This document shows, piece after piece, positions 1,120 to 14,704 of a stretch of 14,973 nucleotides of DNA. Source of the DNA: Synechococcus sp. Lineage in GTDB: Bacteria > Cyanobacteriota > Cyanobacteriia > Thermostichales > PCC-7336. The stretch spans positions 1-14,973 of the forward strand of contig JBFRWD010000087.1 in assembly GCA_051439425.1 (NCBI GenBank), given 5' to 3'. The notes beneath the pieces were generated by a model. It worked only from the letters and a program-made list of their open reading frames with translations. It was not told the DNA's origin and did not search any database. Numbering within the stretch: the stretch's first letter is position 1; each line of letters begins with the position of its first letter. The translations under genes were made by a program, and so were the position numbers.

Positions 1120-1998
1120 ATGTCCGCACTCACGCAACCCAACACTCCTTGGCTATACCGCTATTCCCGCACCATCATGTCCGTGTTTGCGGTACTGGGA
1201 GGAATGCTGACCGCCTATCTGACCGCCAGTAAAATAGCAGCCCAGAAAGTTGCCATGTGTGGGACAGGCCAGGGATGTGACTTGGTGTTAGGTAGCCGTT
1301 GGGCCACATTTTTGGGGGTGCCGACTGCGGCTATCGGTTTGTTGGGGTTCTTGGCGGTACTGTTCTTGGCTGCGCTCCCCGATGACATCCCACTCCTAAA
1401 ACGTTGGCGCTGGCCTGCACTGTTCGCCGTTTCAACGTCCATGTTTGCCTTCGAGATGTACATGGTGTATCTCATGGCAGTTGTGCTGCGCTCGTTTTGC
1501 CCCTATTGCGCAGTGGCGATCGCCATCACCACAGGCATTTGGGTCACGGTATTGTTTGGCCGCTCTTGGGTCGATACCGTGCAGCTTATTATTGGCGGCG
1601 CTGCAGTTGCTCTGGTCACAATCCTCATCACCGTTGGTGTCTATGCCAGCCAGCCCCAACCTCCTAGTGCGTTGGCCGCCGGCGTTGCCCACCACCTCCA
1701 CCACCAAGACATCAAAATGTACGGTGCGAGTTGGTGCCCCCACTGTGCGGAACAAAAGATGCTGTTTGGAAGTGCGTTTAAGGACGTTCCGTACGTTGAA
1801 TGCTCCCCTTACGGTGGCCCCGGTACTCCCCAAGCCCCTGTCTGTGCGGCAGAAGATATTAAGAGCTATCCCACCTGGATTTATGAGGGGGAGCGAATCT
1901 ACGGTATCCAAACCTTGGAAGAACTTGCCGAACTCACGGAGTTTGATGTCTCGACAGTTGCAGACTCTCCGGAACAGGCCAGCGATCTCGGTAGCTAA
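1120..1998 (+). CDS. Vitamin K epoxide reductase (VKOR)-thioredoxin fusion; disulfide bond formation protein (cyanobacterial DsbAB / plant LTO1 type)
   Basis: VKOR loop cysteines (MCGTGQGCDLVLGSRWA), membrane CPYC motif, then a Trx-like domain with YGASWCPHC, YVEC, a further Cys and YPTW. Confidence 0.93.
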   Translation: MSALTQPNTPWLYRYSRTIMSVFAVLGGMLTAYLTASKIAAQKVAMCGTGQGCDLVLGSRWATFLGVPTAAIGLLGFLAVLFLAALPDDIPLLKRWRWPALFAVSTSMFAFEMYMVYLMAVVLRSFCPYCAVAIAITTGIWVTVLFGRSWVDTVQLIIGGAAVALVTILITVGVYASQPQPPSALAAGVAHHLHHQDIKMYGASWCPHCAEQKMLFGSAFKDVPYVECSPYGGPGTPQAPVCAAEDIKSYPTWIYEGERIYGIQTLEELAELTEFDVSTVADSPEQASDLGS

Positions 1999-2046: not shown

Positions 2047-2087
2047 TGAGTCCTCGTCTAATTGAGTCCTCGTCTAATTGAGTTCTC
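2047..2087. repeat. Tandem direct repeat, 16-bp unit TGAGTCCTCGTCTAAT, about 2.5 copies
   Basis: Identical copies at 2047-2062 and 2063-2078, partial copy TGAGTTCTC at 2079-2087. Confidence 0.9.
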
Positions 2088-2158
2088 AACAGGGCACTGT
2101 GCCGCCATTGCGGATTTGTCTGGGTAAAGTTCGCTTTAGTTACCTCTCTACTCAGGAC

Positions 2159-2689
2159 ATGTTTAAGCGCCTAGTTACTCCCTTGGCTTCGCTCGCGACC
2201 GCCGCTACAGCTACCATCGCTACAGCCACTATCGCCATTAACATTGCCCCTGCCTCAGCCCAGTCCGCTACAACATCTGCGGATGGCCGTTATTCCGGGT
2301 TGGTGCAGATTATGACCTGTCCTGACGATCGCGGTACCTATGGCGAATACAACGACTACGGCTATTGGGGAGGAGGGGCCTGGTGTGGCCAGACCGGAGA
2401 AGCTGGTTTTTGGGTGTACTCCTATCCCAATTGGTACGTCTGGGAACAAGAAGGGCACAGCACCAATCAGAAAATTTCAGCCAACATTAGTCTGCCTGCC
2501 CTTGCTTCAGCCAATGGCAACTACTATCGTCTCGAACAAATTTTGACCTGTGCAGCCGATCGTGATGCCTACGGCGATCACAACGATTACGGCTATTGGG
2601 GTGGGGGAGCCTGGTGCGGACAGACTGGCGTAGAAGGATATTGGGTGTACGTCTATCCCAACTGGTATGTCTGGCAAGGTGCTCGCTAG
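2159..2689 (+). CDS. Secreted hypothetical protein with two 56-aa Trp/Tyr/Gly/Cys-rich repeats
   Basis: ATG at 2159 starts a Sec-type signal (MFKRLVTPLASLATAA...APASA|Q). Repeats at 2276-2443 and 2507-2674 align without gaps, 40/56 identical by manual count. Confidence 0.85.
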   Translation: MFKRLVTPLASLATAATATIATATIAINIAPASAQSATTSADGRYSGLVQIMTCPDDRGTYGEYNDYGYWGGGAWCGQTGEAGFWVYSYPNWYVWEQEGHSTNQKISANISLPALASANGNYYRLEQILTCAADRDAYGDHNDYGYWGGGAWCGQTGVEGYWVYVYPNWYVWQGAR

Positions 2690-8676: not shown

Positions 8677-11600
8677 TTAGCACAGCTCCACAGTCCCCCG
8701 ATCTCCGTTCACTCTCACCCGTTGTCCGTCTTTCAGCCGCACCATCGCTTGCTCCACATTCATGACGGCAGGAATGTTGTATTCACGAGCCACAATCGCC
8801 CCATGAGACAGCTGGCCACCCACTTCCGAAATGATGGCCACCGCGTTTACCAGTAGGGGGGCCCAACCGGCATCGGTGTAAGGAACGACCACAATGGTAC
8901 CGGGTTCAAATGTATCGAATTTTAACTGACGACAGACTTTGACAGTGCCCTCCACGCATCCACCGCTTGCGGGAATACCAGACATCAGCCCCTCGGTACC
9001 TAAGCTGCTATTGACGAATGAGAGAGGATCGGAAGAGCGAGTCTCGGCTGGGGGCAGCCGGTTGCCGTAGACCACAGTGGGAATTTGGCGTTCCCGATCG
9101 CGATGGAGCTGCTGTCGGCGTTCTAAAACCATTGGTTGAAGGCGTTCCGGTGCGAGCATGCCACCTACCCATTCTTTAATCTCGCCCAAACGCAAGAAAA
9201 AGATATCCCCTTCCTGATGCAAGACAGACTCTGTAATTCCTCGACGCTCTAGCTCGACAAATGTCCAGCGTAGATGAGCCAGTAATTTTCCATATACCTC
9301 GTCAATGGACGCTTGTACGCTTGCACGCTCTCGACATTGGTTGGACCGCCATTGTTGCAGTGCATTTTTAGGTCGAGAAGCTTGTTGAGGAGCGTTTTCA
9401 GGCTGTTGGGCGAAAGTCTGAAACAAAGAAAAAATCGTGTCGGGAAGTTCGCTCCAGGTGGGGACGGCAATATCCGTTCCCGCTTCGCTCAGATATCCGT
9501 AGCGATCCAGCCAATCATTGAATTGGGATTTTAGCTGGGGATGTTCGGACATCATTGTCTCAATATCCTCATTGCGACTAGCCAAATAACTGTCGCTGTT
9601 CCCAGTACCCACCTCAGCGGTTCCAAGCTGGTTAGAAAGGGTGCTGCTGCGGTACTGAGCGGCTATCTGAGCCAAGTCGCGCAGGGCCGCCAACTCTGGA
9701 GCGGTGGTATCATCTAGCCAACTTTCCGATACCTTAAAAAGTGACTTGCGAATTGCCAATCCGATCGGCCCCAGGATGTTGTAGTAGGTCGCTGGGATCA
9801 GCGTTTCGCGAATGAAATCAACTCGATCGAGCAACTGTACCGGGCTCAGCGAGTCAAGAGAGGTGGATTCCAAACGAGCGATCGCCGGTTTGAATAGCTC
9901 GTCGAAATCTCGATAGAACTCCTCAGGGAGTCTTCCTTCTTTTTGCTTGAGTCTTAGCAGGCCAGATAGATTGCGCAGCGTACTGGCTAACGGAGGGCGT
10001 CCCATTTTTTGCCCCCGCAATAAAAACTCCAACCCCTGTTCGGGCAGCCCCATACGACTGAAAATCTCCCCCAACAAGGTGGCATTGAAATAGGCATGCG
10101 ATCCGAGTAGCGTTGCTGTTTGAGAAAAGTCTAAGTCGGTGGCTCGTTGACCTAACACTGCTGAAAAAATAGTTCCCCATACCCCACAGGTGAGTGGTTG
10201 ATTGACGGACCAAGTCAGCGGATGGATGGCACCGGGGATCACTTCTGCGGCAATGGTTCGCGTCCACACCGGTTGTAAGGTGGAAATTGGACGGCTCTGA
10301 ACGATCCAAATCTGCTCTCCATCCCAAATCCATTCCAAATCTTGCGGAATTCCATCAAATAGAGTTTCGATTTGCAACACTAATTCAGCCAGTTGGCGCA
10401 ATACATTCGCTGGCAGGAGGACGGAAGCTACATGGCGATCGCCCATTGAAAGCAAATCTCTCAAATTGGCCTCGCTCCAATCTTGCTGGATTCGGGATAA
10501 TTCCCAATGGAGCGGAGTCTGCGTCCCGCCGACAACTGCTTCTGCCCCTCCGGGCAGTGCTTCAATCACAATGCGATCTAACCCGTGTATCGGGTGGCGG
10601 CTAAAAGCCACCCCCGACACCTGACCCTCCACGTAATGCTGCAGCAAGATGGACATTCCGGCATCAGTTAATCCACGTCCTTTGCGATAAGCGACAGCGC
10701 TACCATCCCCATAAGAATCACGGCAGACTTCAACGGCTGCCATGAGTTCGCTCCCGGAGCGCACGGGGCCAACCGTCCGGTATTGACCTGCTGCAGAGCT
10801 ACTATCCCCGTCTTCTCCGATGGCCGACGATCGCACCATCAGTGGATGGGCATCACTGGGGTTCACTTGCTTGATGACATTTGGGTCAATCTCGCTACTG
10901 ACTGGGAGACCCCATCCCTGTGGAACCTGAATGCCGTGACGTTTTAACTGAGCGAGTCGTGCCGCTTTGGCACCATATTGCTTAGGGTCAAGGGGGCGAT
11001 CGAGTGAAACTAAAGCCATCGCGTCATCCCTCTGCTGCAAATCAATCCACACCAACAATCCCACCAAGCCAAGAGCTACCCAGCGTTCCGCAAGGGTTTT
11101 TTCCAAAACGGCGACCCACAATGCTCCGCTGGCGCAACCAATTCGGGCCGACCATCTCCGGGCTGAACTTTTCTGGGCTGAACTTCGCAGAGCTGACCAT
11201 CTATTGTTCGACTCTGTATAAATTCCACTGTTCCTGACTGTTCCATCTGTTGGAGATACTTGAAGACTATGAATCAAAGCCTTAGCAACCCCCAATGTCG
11301 CCAATCCGGTTAGAGCTGACAACAGGACCGCTGCCGGAGAGTAAACCAATACGCCCCATGACACATTTGTTACTCCTCCACCCTTGGCGATCACGTAACG
11401 CCCCACCACTAATGGAATCAATACCCCCAGATGTGTTGCTGGCCAATCAGGTAGTAGCCACAGCGCAACGAAAACCGGCGCAACGCCACGAACAATTTCG
11501 GCCCCCACAACAGCAACCCCAATCGCAGGCCCCATCTGTTTAAAGGTGGCTGCTACGCTGATATTCCCCGTCCCTACTTCCCTCAAATCCTCGCCAGTCA

Positions 11601-11697
11601 GAGTGCGAACAATCCACAACGGTAATGGCAAGCAACCCAGCCCAAAAGATGTTAGGGCTAACGCTGCGCTCGTTAGCCATCCACTCAATTCCTGCAT
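8677..11697 (-). CDS. Fusion of a PlsY-like glycerol-3-phosphate acyltransferase membrane domain, a PPDK_N ATP-grasp domain, a central domain and a C-terminal phospho-His swivel domain
   Basis: First ~226 aa are hydrophobic with DLREVGTGNISV and KGGGVTN. Then GAKAARL, VRSSAIGEDG-SSAAGQY, SGVAFSRHP, PQDLEW-WIVQSRPI, and C-terminal TDAGWAPLL-EVGGQLSHGAIVAREYNIPAV. Confidence 0.88.
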   Translation of the reverse strand: MQELSGWLTSAALALTSFGLGCLPLPLWIVRTLTGEDLREVGTGNISVAATFKQMGPAIGVAVVGAEIVRGVAPVFVALWLLPDWPATHLGVLIPLVVGRYVIAKGGGVTNVSWGVLVYSPAAVLLSALTGLATLGVAKALIHSLQVSPTDGTVRNSGIYTESNNRWSALRSSAQKSSARRWSARIGCASGALWVAVLEKTLAERWVALGLVGLLVWIDLQQRDDAMALVSLDRPLDPKQYGAKAARLAQLKRHGIQVPQGWGLPVSSEIDPNVIKQVNPSDAHPLMVRSSAIGEDGDSSSAAGQYRTVGPVRSGSELMAAVEVCRDSYGDGSAVAYRKGRGLTDAGMSILLQHYVEGQVSGVAFSRHPIHGLDRIVIEALPGGAEAVVGGTQTPLHWELSRIQQDWSEANLRDLLSMGDRHVASVLLPANVLRQLAELVLQIETLFDGIPQDLEWIWDGEQIWIVQSRPISTLQPVWTRTIAAEVIPGAIHPLTWSVNQPLTCGVWGTIFSAVLGQRATDLDFSQTATLLGSHAYFNATLLGEIFSRMGLPEQGLEFLLRGQKMGRPPLASTLRNLSGLLRLKQKEGRLPEEFYRDFDELFKPAIARLESTSLDSLSPVQLLDRVDFIRETLIPATYYNILGPIGLAIRKSLFKVSESWLDDTTAPELAALRDLAQIAAQYRSSTLSNQLGTAEVGTGNSDSYLASRNEDIETMMSEHPQLKSQFNDWLDRYGYLSEAGTDIAVPTWSELPDTIFSLFQTFAQQPENAPQQASRPKNALQQWRSNQCRERASVQASIDEVYGKLLAHLRWTFVELERRGITESVLHQEGDIFFLRLGEIKEWVGGMLAPERLQPMVLERRQQLHRDRERQIPTVVYGNRLPPAETRSSDPLSFVNSSLGTEGLMSGIPASGGCVEGTVKVCRQLKFDTFEPGTIVVVPYTDAGWAPLLVNAVAIISEVGGQLSHGAIVAREYNIPAVMNVEQAMVRLKDGQRVRVNGDRGTVELC
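11145..11204. repeat. Four degenerate 15-bp tandem units inside the fusion CDS
   Basis: GGGCCGACCATCTCC, GGGCTGAACTTTTCT, GGGCTGAACTTCGCA, GAGCTGACCATCTAT. On the minus strand they encode NRWSA-LRSSA-QKSSA-RRWSA. Confidence 0.7.
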
Positions 11698-12456: not shown

Positions 12457-12484
12457 AAAGCCTCTAGTATGTGCTGGGGGCTTT
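12457..12484 (+). terminator. Probable intrinsic terminator after DUF3134
   Basis: 12-bp stem AAAGCCTCTAGT / GCTGGGGGCTTT with G-U pairs and an ATGT loop. The U-tract is weak (TTTCGTAT). Confidence 0.6.
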
Positions 12485-12569
12485 CGTATGTTGGGAGGAA
12501 ACCGCCCCCAAATAGCTCAACTTGGCCCACACAAGCCCACTTTTTCGTGTCAAGATGTTTAAAGTCCAG

Positions 12570-12585
12570 TATTCCGATCGGAATA
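12570..12585. promoter_or_regulatory. Perfect 16-bp palindrome TATTCCGATCGGAATA, candidate operator
   Basis: Exactly self-complementary, ending 9 nt before the JAB gene ATG at 12595. Confidence 0.5.
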
Positions 12586-12594
12586 GGCGGGTTT

Positions 12595-13134
12595 ATGACG
12601 TTGCACCTCACCCTAAATCATCAGACGCAGATTCGCTCCCATGGCGAGAGCTCGTTTCCACAGGAGTGTTGCGGCCTACTACTCGGTGACATTGAACTCA
12701 GAGAGGGGCAGGAGCACAAGATCGTTAAAGGTTTGTGGTCGGTGGACAACACTTGGGATTCGGCCGAGAATCCTGTTGATGACGGTGAGTCGATCAATCG
12801 CCGCTTTTTGATCGAGCCGGCTGATTTTAAGCGCGGCTACGATGAGGCTCGCAAGCAAGGGCTTGGAATTATCGGTACTTACCACTCTCACCCCAATCAT
12901 CCCGCTATCCCGTCAGAGTTCGATCGCCAACATGCATTTCCTTGGGGCTATTCCTGCGTCATTGTCAGTGTTAAAGACGGTTCTGCTGCAAACCTGCGCA
13001 GCTGGGTGTTGGATGAGAGCGATCGCTGTGTTGAGCAGGTTATTTGGGTTCAACTGGAGAGTGATGTGACTGACTCTAAATCCTCCCAGATGTCCGCTGA
13101 AGCGACTGACACCAGCCAACCTGTGGGTGTTTAA
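12595..13134 (+). CDS. JAB/MPN (Mov34, M67) zinc metallopeptidase, Mec/QbsD-like
   Basis: FPQECCGLLLG (catalytic Glu) and the JAMM motif YHSHPNHPAIPSEFD. ATG at 12595 is preferred over 12469. Confidence 0.92.
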   Translation: MTLHLTLNHQTQIRSHGESSFPQECCGLLLGDIELREGQEHKIVKGLWSVDNTWDSAENPVDDGESINRRFLIEPADFKRGYDEARKQGLGIIGTYHSHPNHPAIPSEFDRQHAFPWGYSCVIVSVKDGSAANLRSWVLDESDRCVEQVIWVQLESDVTDSKSSQMSAEATDTSQPVGV

Positions 13135-13252
13135 TGCAGTGCTTGGGGATATGACCCACCGCTCAACTTCTGATTTTGGGACCAAAACTGTTTACTCTTA
13201 AAGAGTTCGACAAACGTTTGCACATTACCTTCGCGATCGACCGATTCCTATC

Positions 13253-13534
13253 ATGGCTGTAAAAGTTCTGATTCCAACACCGCTGCGTGCCTATACTGGC
13301 AATCAAGACAGTGTAGACCTCGACGGCAATACCGTTGGAGAAATTCTCGATAATCTCACCAATACTTACTCCGATCTAAAGCGCCATCTGTATAACGAGA
13401 ACGGCGAGTTGCGGAATTTCGTCAATGTGTACTTGGGTGATGAGGATATTCGACATCTAGAGCAAGGGAAATCCACCCCTGTCACTGGAGATGAAACTAT
13501 CAGTATCGTTCCTTCCATTGCGGGAGGTTGCTAA
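13253..13534 (+). CDS. MoaD/ThiS/CysO-family ubiquitin-like sulfur carrier ending in Gly-Gly-Cys
   Basis: MAVKVLIPTPLR, TVGEIL, FVNVYL-DEDIR, and the C-terminus ISIVPSIAGGC. Confidence 0.93.
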   Translation: MAVKVLIPTPLRAYTGNQDSVDLDGNTVGEILDNLTNTYSDLKRHLYNENGELRNFVNVYLGDEDIRHLEQGKSTPVTGDETISIVPSIAGGC

Positions 13535-13537
13535 CTC

Positions 13538-14704
13538 ATGTTGAACGACACATCAAGTATCGAGCTATCTCGGGATGAGATGGAGCGATTTTCGCGCCAT
13601 TTGATCCTGCCCGAGGTCGGCCTCGAAGGACAGAAAAAACTCAAGGCTGCCAGCGTTTTATGCATCGGTAGCGGCGGTTTGGGCTCTCCCCTGCTGCTTT
13701 ACCTGGCCGCGGCTGGGATCGGTCGATTAGGTCTGGTTGATTTCGATGTAGTTGATTCGTCCAACCTACAGCGTCAGATCATTCACGGCACCTCATGGGT
13801 GGGTAAGCCCAAGATTCAATCTGCGAAAGATCGCATTTTGGAGATCAACCCCTATTGCCAGGTGGATCTGTATGAAACCCGTCTGGAAGCCAGTAACGCT
13901 CTGGATATTTTTGCGGACTACGACATCGTCGTAGACGGCACCGATAACTTCCCTACTCGCTATCTGGTGAACGACGCCTGCGTGCTCACCGGCAAACCGA
14001 ATGTATACGGGTCCATCTTCCGCTTTGAGGGGCAAGCCACTGTCTTCAACTACGAAGGTGGCCCCAACTATCGCGATCTCTATCCCGAACCCCCGCCCCC
14101 CGGTCTGGTACCCTCTTGTGCTGAAGGCGGCGTATTGGGAATTCTCCCCGGCCTTATTGGTGTAATTCAAGCCACCGAAACAGTCAAAATCATCTTGGGT
14201 GAAGGGATGACGCTCAGCGGTCGATTGTTGCTGTACGATTCCTTGAACATGAAGTTTCGGGAACTAAAGCTGCGCAAGAGCCCCGCGACACCTCCAATTA
14301 CCGAGCTGATTGATTACGAACAGTTTTGCGGAATTCCCCAAGCGGCAGCTGCAGATGCTGAAGGGAGTGACGAAATTCCCGAACTAGATGTATCCGATTT
14401 GAAATCGCGGATGGATGCAGGCAAGGACTTTGTCTTGATCGACGTTCGCAACCCTCACGAATACGACATCTGCAGTATCGAAGGGGCGGAGTTAATTCCA
14501 CTGTCCGATATCGAGAGTGGTGACGGGGTCGATCGCGTTCGGGAGCTGACTAACGGTTCCGAGCTGATCGTGCATTGCAAGAGCGGTATGCGATCGATGA
14601 AGGCTCTGAAGGCGCTGCAAAGTGCAGGAATTAAAGGTAAAAATCTCAAGGGTGGCATCCTGGCCTGGGGAGATGCATACGACCCAACGATTCCTCGCTA
14701 CTAG
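13538..14704 (+). CDS. moeB: MoeB/MoeZ-type E1-like adenylyltransferase with C-terminal rhodanese domain
   Basis: RFSRHLILPEVG, GSGGLGS, DFDVVDSSNLQRQ, DGTDNFPTRYL, PSCAEGGVLG. Rhodanese motifs LIDVR, HCKSGMRS and LKGGILAW. Confidence 0.95.
   Translation: MLNDTSSIELSRDEMERFSRHLILPEVGLEGQKKLKAASVLCIGSGGLGSPLLLYLAAAGIGRLGLVDFDVVDSSNLQRQIIHGTSWVGKPKIQSAKDRILEINPYCQVDLYETRLEASNALDIFADYDIVVDGTDNFPTRYLVNDACVLTGKPNVYGSIFRFEGQATVFNYEGGPNYRDLYPEPPPPGLVPSCAEGGVLGILPGLIGVIQATETVKIILGEGMTLSGRLLLYDSLNMKFRELKLRKSPATPPITELIDYEQFCGIPQAAAADAEGSDEIPELDVSDLKSRMDAGKDFVLIDVRNPHEYDICSIEGAELIPLSDIESGDGVDRVRELTNGSELIVHCKSGMRSMKALKALQSAGIKGKNLKGGILAWGDAYDPTIPRY

Follow-up and report, generated by a model that had tools for sequence, protein, structure and literature searches.

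The 14,973-nucleotide stretch of Synechococcus sp. DNA analysed here (contig JBFRWD010000087.1; hereafter the window) carries a single ATG-started open reading frame (ORF) of 1006 codons plus a stop, on the reverse strand at positions 8677..11697. Its product joins a membrane domain related to PlsY, the glycerol-3-phosphate (G3P) acyltransferase, to a cytoplasmic part that, judged from its domains, is a dikinase of the rifampin phosphotransferase (RPH) type without the phosphoenolpyruvate (PEP)/pyruvate barrel. The family to which this fusion protein belongs is real, widespread and uncharacterised, and is probably misnamed in databases. We give about even chances to its being a membrane-bound phosphotransferase of the water-dikinase type that acts on a lipid-like acceptor.

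The domain layout was established by Pfam. G3P_acyltransf (PF02660) matched residues 17-137 with 50.5 bits (cut-off, 24.1), PPDK_N matched residues 280-475 (120.6 bits) and PEP-utilizers matched residues 930-1001 (78.6 bits). The same scan of the fusion protein returned no match to PF02896 (the PEP/pyruvate barrel, PEP-utilizers_C) and no DNA-binding or output domain. A chance origin of the domain matches was excluded, because their E-values ranged from 1e-13 to 1e-34 and the domains are conserved across hundreds of genomes. NCBIfam gave partial matches only, all far below the respective cut-offs: the 'PEP synthase' PRK06241 subfamily (218.6 versus 945 bits), the rph equivalog NF041857 (195.4 versus 999), PigC (174.1 versus 1300), RedH (172.1 versus 1350), PEP_synth TIGR01418 (144 versus 739.75), rifampin phosphotransferase NF000283 (131.2 versus 1700), and the PlsY-type PRK14416 (30.3 versus 222). 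The original prediction, an earlier reading of this DNA, had described a 1006-aa ORF with PlsY-like, ATP-grasp, long central, and C-terminal His domains, arranged as in RPH and not as in PEP synthase or pyruvate phosphate dikinase (PPDK). This was borne out by the ORF call, by Pfam, including the missing PF02896, and by alignments to the RPH known as RPH-Lm. The motifs it had pointed to were also where it had placed them, with GTGNISV at residues 42-48, KGGGVTN at 105-111, and His965 within LSHGAIVARE.

The N-terminal domain is predicted to adopt a genuine PlsY fold, as had been expected. An AlphaFold2 (AF2) model of residues 1-239, built on an alignment of 13 fusion-type N-domains with the genome's own PlsY and 15 canonical PlsY sequences, reached a mean predicted local distance difference test score (pLDDT) of 88.2 and a predicted template modelling score (pTM) of 0.83. 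When this model was compared with 350,542 PDB chains using Foldseek, the top five matches were all Aquifex aeolicus PlsY (aaPlsY; 5xj5-5xj8), with E-values of 2e-5 to 5e-4 and template modelling (TM) scores, relative to the target, of 0.73-0.77; the sixth match had an E-value of 0.5. As a control for bias in the N-domain model, the whole protein was modelled from 35 family members only, without canonical PlsY rows. This second model (pLDDT 85.8, pTM 0.75) also matched 5xj5, at a TM score of 0.73.

Conservation within this fold is concentrated at the former active site. A profile of 19 fusion-type N-domains (A3), 29-47% identical to the N-domain of the window protein, aligned to the aaPlsY chain with an E-value of 1.1e-6. 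Of its 22 invariant columns, 14 belonged to the motif-1 loop, the His92 position, or the stretch formed by loop 3 and the beginning of the helix after it, and it is from the motif-1, His92 and loop-3 segments that the aaPlsY substrate site is built (passages of PMC5700162). Because the invariant columns cluster there among sequences this divergent, the N-domain appears to be under selection at the old substrate site, with the G3P (second-substrate) half gone, a pattern that does not look like that of a passive anchor. In motif 1, the residues invariant across the fusion family were G42, T43, G44, N45, V48, A50 and F52.

The G3P pocket is where the family departs furthest from PlsY. According to passages of PMC5700162, PlsY clamps the G3P phosphate with Ser35, Arg45, Lys104 and Asn180, and binds the 2-OH through Ser142 and motif 3 (His177 ... 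Asn180). Ser35 corresponds to Thr43, which is invariant in the fusion family (an S35T mutant of aaPlsY keeps 17% activity; same passages). The Arg45 position is variable: the window protein has Lys53, and its relatives have Tyr, Ile or Ser. Lys104 lacks an equivalent at the same position, a non-invariant Lys/Arg standing two to three places earlier, and the Ser142 position shows no conservation. The original prediction had called motifs 1 and 2 divergent and had seen no RHxxNI motif 3, and an alignment with 16 canonical PlsY sequences agreed: motif 3 (H..N) was absent from all 13 fusion-type N-domains, in each of which the region reads I.L.Q.DD and ends in the invariant pair Asp224-Asp225. The alignment of A3 to aaPlsY stops short of His177/Asn180. 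In the fusion protein PF02660 covered no more than profile positions 2-118 of 164, versus 1-164 (172.9 bits) in the true PlsY of the genome. On these comparisons the PlsY-like domain of the fusion would be no working G3P acyltransferase; since the pocket is lost, it should not be able to make lysophosphatidate as PlsY does.

At the phosphate hole the residues have been exchanged. In aaPlsY the side chain of His92 binds acyl-phosphate and the hydroxyl of Thr41 binds the acyl carbonyl (passages of PMC5700162). His92 is replaced by Arg100, which is invariant in the fusion family; the loop 3 backbone 104-107 corresponds to a glycine-rich loop with invariant Gly108, Thr110 and Asn111, ahead of which the family has a 4-residue deletion relative to canonical PlsY; and Thr41 is Ser in most relatives and Ala49 in the window protein. 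The motif-1 loop, the glycine-rich loop 3 and the seven-helix fold remain homologous to those of aaPlsY (PDB 5XJ5-5XJ9; passages of PMC5700162), and the D/E-x-x-K/R-G motif of helix 2 is kept. Additional invariant polar residues of the N-domain were Glu67, Arg180, Asp224 and Asp225.

A Ser/Arg-rich insertion of about 38 residues (approximately residues 147-183) lengthens the loop that precedes the sixth membrane helix. Found only in the closest relatives and absent from most of the family, it was modelled at a pLDDT of <50 over residues 148-167.

Unlike PlsY, the fusion protein runs on at its C-terminus into a 780-aa cytoplasmic enzyme. By sequence, residues 230-1006 found RPH-Lm (5fbs/5hv1) as their best match (E = 1e-37), and a profile of the fusion family matched RPH-Lm with an E-value of 8.9e-87. 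By structure, the whole-protein model aligned to RPH-Lm over approximately 900-950 columns (E = 1.6e-28) at a low global TM score, as expected for a mobile multi-domain protein. Like RPH-Lm (PDB 5FBS/5FBT/5FBU, 5HV1-3; passages of PMC4844700), which has no membrane domain, the fusion protein proceeds from an ATP-grasp domain through a large helical central domain to a C-terminal swivel domain with the catalytic His. The relay residues shared by alignment are His965 (RPH-Lm His825, the phospho-carrier), Arg289 (Arg117) and Glu455 (Glu297), the latter two at the ATP site in passages of PMC4844700; RPH-Lm Lys22 fell outside the alignment. His965 and Glu455 were invariant in 35/35 family members, and Arg289 was present in at least 90%. 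PEP synthase and PPDK would have the ATP-to-AMP and inorganic phosphate (Pi) chemistry in common with the fusion protein, along with the ATP-grasp and swivel His domains; their His domain is central and followed by the C-terminal PF02896 barrel, whereas the fusion protein has a C-terminal His domain and no barrel.

The most conserved part of the fusion family was the central domain (about residues 479-895). A precomputed Pfam list places PF27448 on most family members, and an ESM Atlas look-up identified PF27448 as Rph_4th and grouped residues 480-895 with such clusters at 0.95-0.96. Against the rifampin (RIF)-binding domain of RPH-Lm, this region gave a 15-bit sequence match only, at RPH positions 530-635.

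The fusion is common among cyanobacteria, and the original prediction had already mentioned similar fusions there. In a word-indexed protein search, PF02660, PF01326 and PF00391 occurred together in 118 of the 119 other proteins among the matches listed. These relatives were 45-76% identical to the window protein, were named from Microcoleus, Oscillatoria, Lyngbya, Tychonema, Limnospira and Okeania, and mostly bore the public label 'glycerol-3-phosphate acyltransferase'. This name is unsupported, because the active-site comparison points to loss of the G3P site. Within a phylum-wide sample of 301 genomes, which includes the window's own, 121 matched at E <= 1e-20. All strong matches (E <1e-120) came from the same class, in stop-free frames of roughly 930-1230 aa; 23 genomes of the same phylum had weak matches only (1e-21 to 1e-46), starting at approximately residue 275 or later and without the membrane domain. 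A class-level sample of 401 genomes, queried with the fusion-type N-domain P0282 at E <= 1e-12, contained such a domain in 244 genomes, and all but ten of the matches listed lay in frames of 901-1229 aa. Seven of those ten were short frames of 192-835 aa, mostly on short contigs. Presence was uneven at the family level, from 39/39 genomes in some families to 0/40, 0/39 and 0/10 in others. A scan of genome records found a relative encoded in at least 842 species-level records. Eighty of these include Nostoc, Anabaena, Calothrix, Fischerella, Nodularia and Planktothrix, as well as Spirulina, Crocosphaera, Halothece, Leptolyngbya, Pleurocapsales and one metagenome-assembled genome (MAG) labelled Actinomycetota.

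The N-domain alone matched 248 proteins of a protein library at E <= 1e-3 and 29 at E <= 1e-10. The 29 best were fusions or fragments thereof, and ordinary 200-aa PlsY proteins appeared only from approximately 1e-8 downwards, a ranking which suggests that the fusion N-domains form a distinct clade of PlsY paralogues. When the N-domain profile was compared with proteins of 108-419 aa, there were 124 matches. Those with names were cyanobacterial and mostly 'partial' gene calls, and one record labelled Vampirovibrionales and one labelled Obscuribacterales both came from contigs of <3 kb.

Several relatives differed in length or content. Three candidates for a split form (P0125, P0146, P0147) were rejected, as their ends consist of unrelated sequence, which suggests frameshifted or truncated gene calls. 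A 794-aa protein without PF02660 (P0006) begins inside the last membrane helices and probably has a mis-called start. A 594-aa relative from a metagenome protein cluster (P0206) has the PlsY-like, ATP-grasp and swivel domains and no central domain, and Asn takes the place of its catalytic His (LSNGAI). Of the 11 cluster members, ten were exactly 594 aa long, and the protein resembles a reduced paralogue, probably inactive, that some lineage has retained. Longer members, of 1229 aa (L034, G220:C9) and 1148 aa (P0143) versus the usual 950-1020 aa, carry extra inserted sequence. Three small genomes of 3.3-3.4 Mb (G131, G174, G192; family f21) had only a 932-aa frame that aligned with residues 429-1005 (30-31% identity, E = 1e-35 to 1e-39); it is either a remote paralogue or a family member that has diverged strongly.

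In three of the 401 class-sample genomes (G357, G372, G397; one family and one genus of a deep lineage) the halves were separate genes. The N-domain is its own 223-aa ORF, and the dikinase ORF lies in another frame, its start overlapping the N-domain stop. The split is no assembly accident, since the three N-domains share 80-100% identity with the query P0282; the G357 protein has an identical counterpart in an NCBI record whose name comes from a Gloeobacterales MAG. Separate halves in relatives had been named in the original prediction as a finding that would refute it, and such relatives do exist. Their genes are adjacent with overlapping stop and start, however, an arrangement that indicates functional coupling and is no argument against it. 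A pair of genes that are adjacent and apparently coupled in translation in one lineage, and fused elsewhere, is a classic sign that two halves work together. If the lineage label is correct, the two-gene form may be ancestral.

The genome, whose source assembly is 96% complete, covers the corresponding housekeeping steps without the fusion protein. It encodes a separate canonical plsY (172.9 bits) with GSGSTGATN, GGKSAAT and HRGNIQRL present, and a plsX (407.9 bits). A true PEP synthase on contig 123 combines PPDK_N (401.9 bits) and PEP-utilizers_C (211 bits) in one 841-aa frame, and all PF02896 matches of the genome were on contigs other than that of the fusion. These findings bear on the two functions that the original prediction had offered. 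One, in which the enzyme would bypass PlsX and feed acyl-phosphate to its own PlsY domain, is weakened by a genome that keeps full plsY and plsX and by the loss of the G3P pocket. The other, in which the PlsY fold has been repurposed and would hold a lipid acceptor, fits the evidence best. Overall, the observation behind the original prediction was confirmed and its interpretation partly supported.

The mechanism that we consider evenly balanced between right and wrong would follow the chemistry of RPH-Lm. The ATP-grasp domain would bind ATP, and His965 on the swivel domain would take the beta-phosphate, releasing AMP + Pi. The swivel domain would then swing to a second site and pass the phosphate on, so that ATP + acceptor + H2O would yield AMP + Pi + acceptor-phosphate via phospho-His965. 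From the fusion and its conservation, the acceptor is likely to be an amphiphilic, lipid-like molecule with its head group at the cytoplasmic face of the membrane. It would sit in or next to the PlsY-derived pocket, which would keep a modified form of the PlsY lipid-phosphate 'hole' minus the G3P site, probably together with the central Rph_4th domain. Candidate acceptors include fatty acids, prenols, and phenolic or other hydroxylated lipids. Phenol, hydroxyacetophenone and a prodigiosin precursor are substrates of RPH-branch relatives. Phenylphosphate synthase and HpeHI are split PEP-synthase-like dikinases that phosphorylate hydrophobic phenolic hydroxyls. HpeI (PDB 9GOJ) was among the structure and sequence matches to the ATP-grasp part of the fusion protein only, and these enzymes, unlike the fusion, are soluble, multi-subunit and without a membrane domain. 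Rifampin, itself a hydrophobic hydroxyl compound, is phosphorylated by the RPH branch (passages of PMC4844700).

Several results weigh against a lipid-directed phosphotransferase. The residues that hold the phosphate in RPH-Lm (Arg666, Glu667, Lys670, Gln337) lie in unaligned stretches, the profile alignment to the central and C-terminal part of RPH-Lm spanning 530-635 and 684-867 only, with Gln336/337 outside; as these acceptor residues cannot be aligned, the acceptor site may be in the central domain, in the membrane domain, or between them. The 594-aa relative that lacks the central domain is uninformative on where the acceptor binds, because its catalytic His is also replaced by Asn. The gene is not essential to cyanobacterial membranes, since many unicellular lineages are without it (0/40 and 0/39 genomes in two families). 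Finally, no neighbour was conserved when 21 genomes of different families were compared over 7 kb on each side by all-against-all BLASTP (1e-8, >=50% coverage): the fusion was common to 21/21 and the next best cluster to 3/21. A complex prediction of the PlsY-like domain (1-235) with the swivel domain (896-1006) gave a score of 0.00 and a mark of 0.32; made with no controls, it counts neither way.

Other readings place the substrate elsewhere. The membrane domain could be an anchor or localiser, and the central domain alone would then bind a hydrophobic small molecule, perhaps a xenobiotic, a phenolic metabolite or an antibiotic-like compound. The central domain is the most highly conserved part, it groups with Rph_4th clusters, and RPH-Lm binds rifampin wholly inside it (passages of PMC4844700). 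A plain anchor, however, would not be expected to hold invariant polar and Gly residues at PlsY active-site positions among sequences 29-47% identical, nor to survive as a gene of its own, coupled in translation, where the halves are split, and we regard this explanation as unlikely while keeping it in serious consideration. If, alternatively, the acyl-phosphate chemistry of PlsY survived, the dikinase half could convert a free fatty acid to acyl-phosphate, from which the PlsY-derived domain could acylate an acceptor other than G3P, making the protein an ATP-dependent membrane acyl ligase. PigC, RedH and HapC, the prodiginine condensing enzymes, offer an analogy, as they use phosphoryl activation, through a phosphorylated intermediate, for condensation. 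They share the RPH-type architecture with the C-terminal His domain, and PigC and RedH were among the partial NCBIfam matches; unlike the fusion, they have no PlsY-like domain and are located in pigment gene clusters. The best-conserved N-domain positions are those of the PlsY acyl-phosphate hole, the invariant Arg that replaces His92 could still bind phosphate, and Glu67, Arg180, Asp224 and Asp225 could build a new acceptor site. An acyl ligase nevertheless seems improbable to us: the carbonyl-binding Thr41 is not kept in the window protein or in most relatives, no candidate acceptor is known or hinted at by neighbouring genes, and fatty acid recycling in cyanobacteria is described, in passages of PMC10114076, as proceeding via Aas.

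A phosphate-hole-like pocket kept without a second-substrate site would also suit a sensor or regulator that reads acyl-phosphate or another lipid phosphate and uses the His relay for signalling or protein modification, and regulatory PPS-like proteins exist (PMC10948481). The catalytic hallmarks of a dikinase are nevertheless all intact and invariant, the 21 genomes show no conserved partner gene, and Pfam detects no DNA-binding or output domain, which together leave a regulatory role very unlikely. That the database names are literally true, so that the protein is a PlsY G3P acyltransferase or a PEP synthase (pyruvate, water dikinase), we find hardly credible. The source names of relatives and the above-cut-off PF02660 match speak for it, but the G3P pocket is not kept, the NCBIfam PlsY-type and PEP_synth scores are a fraction of their cut-offs, the PEP-utilizers_C domain is absent, and true plsY, plsX and ppsA genes are located elsewhere in the genome.

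We found no paper on a PlsY-dikinase fusion in literature searches, and the passages of a 2023 fatty-acid review (PMC10114076) on PlsY, acyl-phosphate or fatty acid kinase leave it unmentioned. With low confidence, we suggest that the phosphotransferase acting on a lipid-like acceptor could represent a so far unknown ATP route for activating a membrane lipid. It could be a third source of acyl-phosphate from free fatty acid, besides PlsX and FakAB, or a water-dikinase for a lipid, prenol or quinol, in which a PlsY paralogue would have turned into the lipid-holding half of a phospho-His relay, with the two-gene form ancestral and fused in crown cyanobacteria. Were the acceptor a fatty acid, the product would equal that of the known acyl-phosphate sources FakA/FakB and PlsX (PMC9136124), whose folds and chemistry are unrelated to those of the fusion and to which no homology turned up in this analysis. 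Were it a membrane lipid, this would be the first phospho-histidine-relay dikinase shown to act in the plane of the membrane, and would clearly illustrate how an integral-membrane acyltransferase fold can be reused to present a substrate. This large, so far unstudied family comes in fused and split forms, which together provide a ready test system. Coordinates of the features of the fusion gene are collected in Table 1.

Table 1. Positions in the window of the fusion gene and of its domains, motifs and single residues, with the basis for each.
Feature	Position	Strand	Basis
Whole ORF	8677..11697	-	Full-length relatives 45-76% identical
PlsY-like membrane domain, residues 1-226, seven-helix fold (predicted)	11020..11697	-	PF02660, AF2 model, Foldseek
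Motif 1 loop GTGNISVAATF, residues 42-52, remodelled	11542..11574	-	Aligns to aaPlsY G34-T44
Arg100 codon, family-invariant, at aaPlsY His92 position	11398..11400	-	Profile alignment
Loop 3 / motif 2 KGGGVTN, residues 105-111, remodelled	11365..11385	-	Alignments
Hydrophilic insertion, about residues 147-183	11149..11259	-	Alignments, low pLDDT
Asp224-Asp225 invariant pair, just past last membrane helix	11023..11028	-	Canonical PlsY motif 3 (H..N) site
ATP-grasp (nucleotide-binding) domain, about residues 228-478	10264..11016	-	PPDK_N 280-475; aligned to RPH-Lm 112-319
Central helical domain, about residues 479-895	9013..10263	-	PF27448 (Rph_4th) in precomputed annotation
Swivel phosphohistidine domain, residues 896-1006	8680..9012	-	PEP-utilizers 930-1001; aligned to RPH-Lm 738-865
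His965 codon, predicted phospho-carrier	8803..8805	-	In LSHGAIVARE; aligned to RPH-Lm His825

In the window, the fusion gene is flanked on one side by a convergent gene for an AmiA-like amidase. Upstream, a 770-bp gap is followed by a divergent set of three consecutive genes (12469-14704, +) that encode a prokaryotic JAB-domain protein, a ThiS-family small protein and a ThiF-rhodanese E1-like enzyme, a trio whose layout appears to be that of a ubiquitin-like sulfur-carrier or conjugation set. Other neighbours, also functionally unrelated, include a GT4 glycosyltransferase and NDH-2. The ORF at 1120-1998 (+) encodes a protein that has a membrane domain of the VKOR family at residues 19-144 and, further on, a CPHC motif in its C-terminal region, and that presumably resembles the VKOR-thioredoxin-like fusion for disulfide formation in cyanobacteria. 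A 203-aa ORF at 2078-2689 (+), with a signal-like N-terminus and no Pfam match, contains an internal duplication of a Trp/Tyr/Gly-rich unit (..DRGTYGEYNDYGYWGGGAWCGQTGEAGFWVYSYPNWYVWEQ.. repeated).

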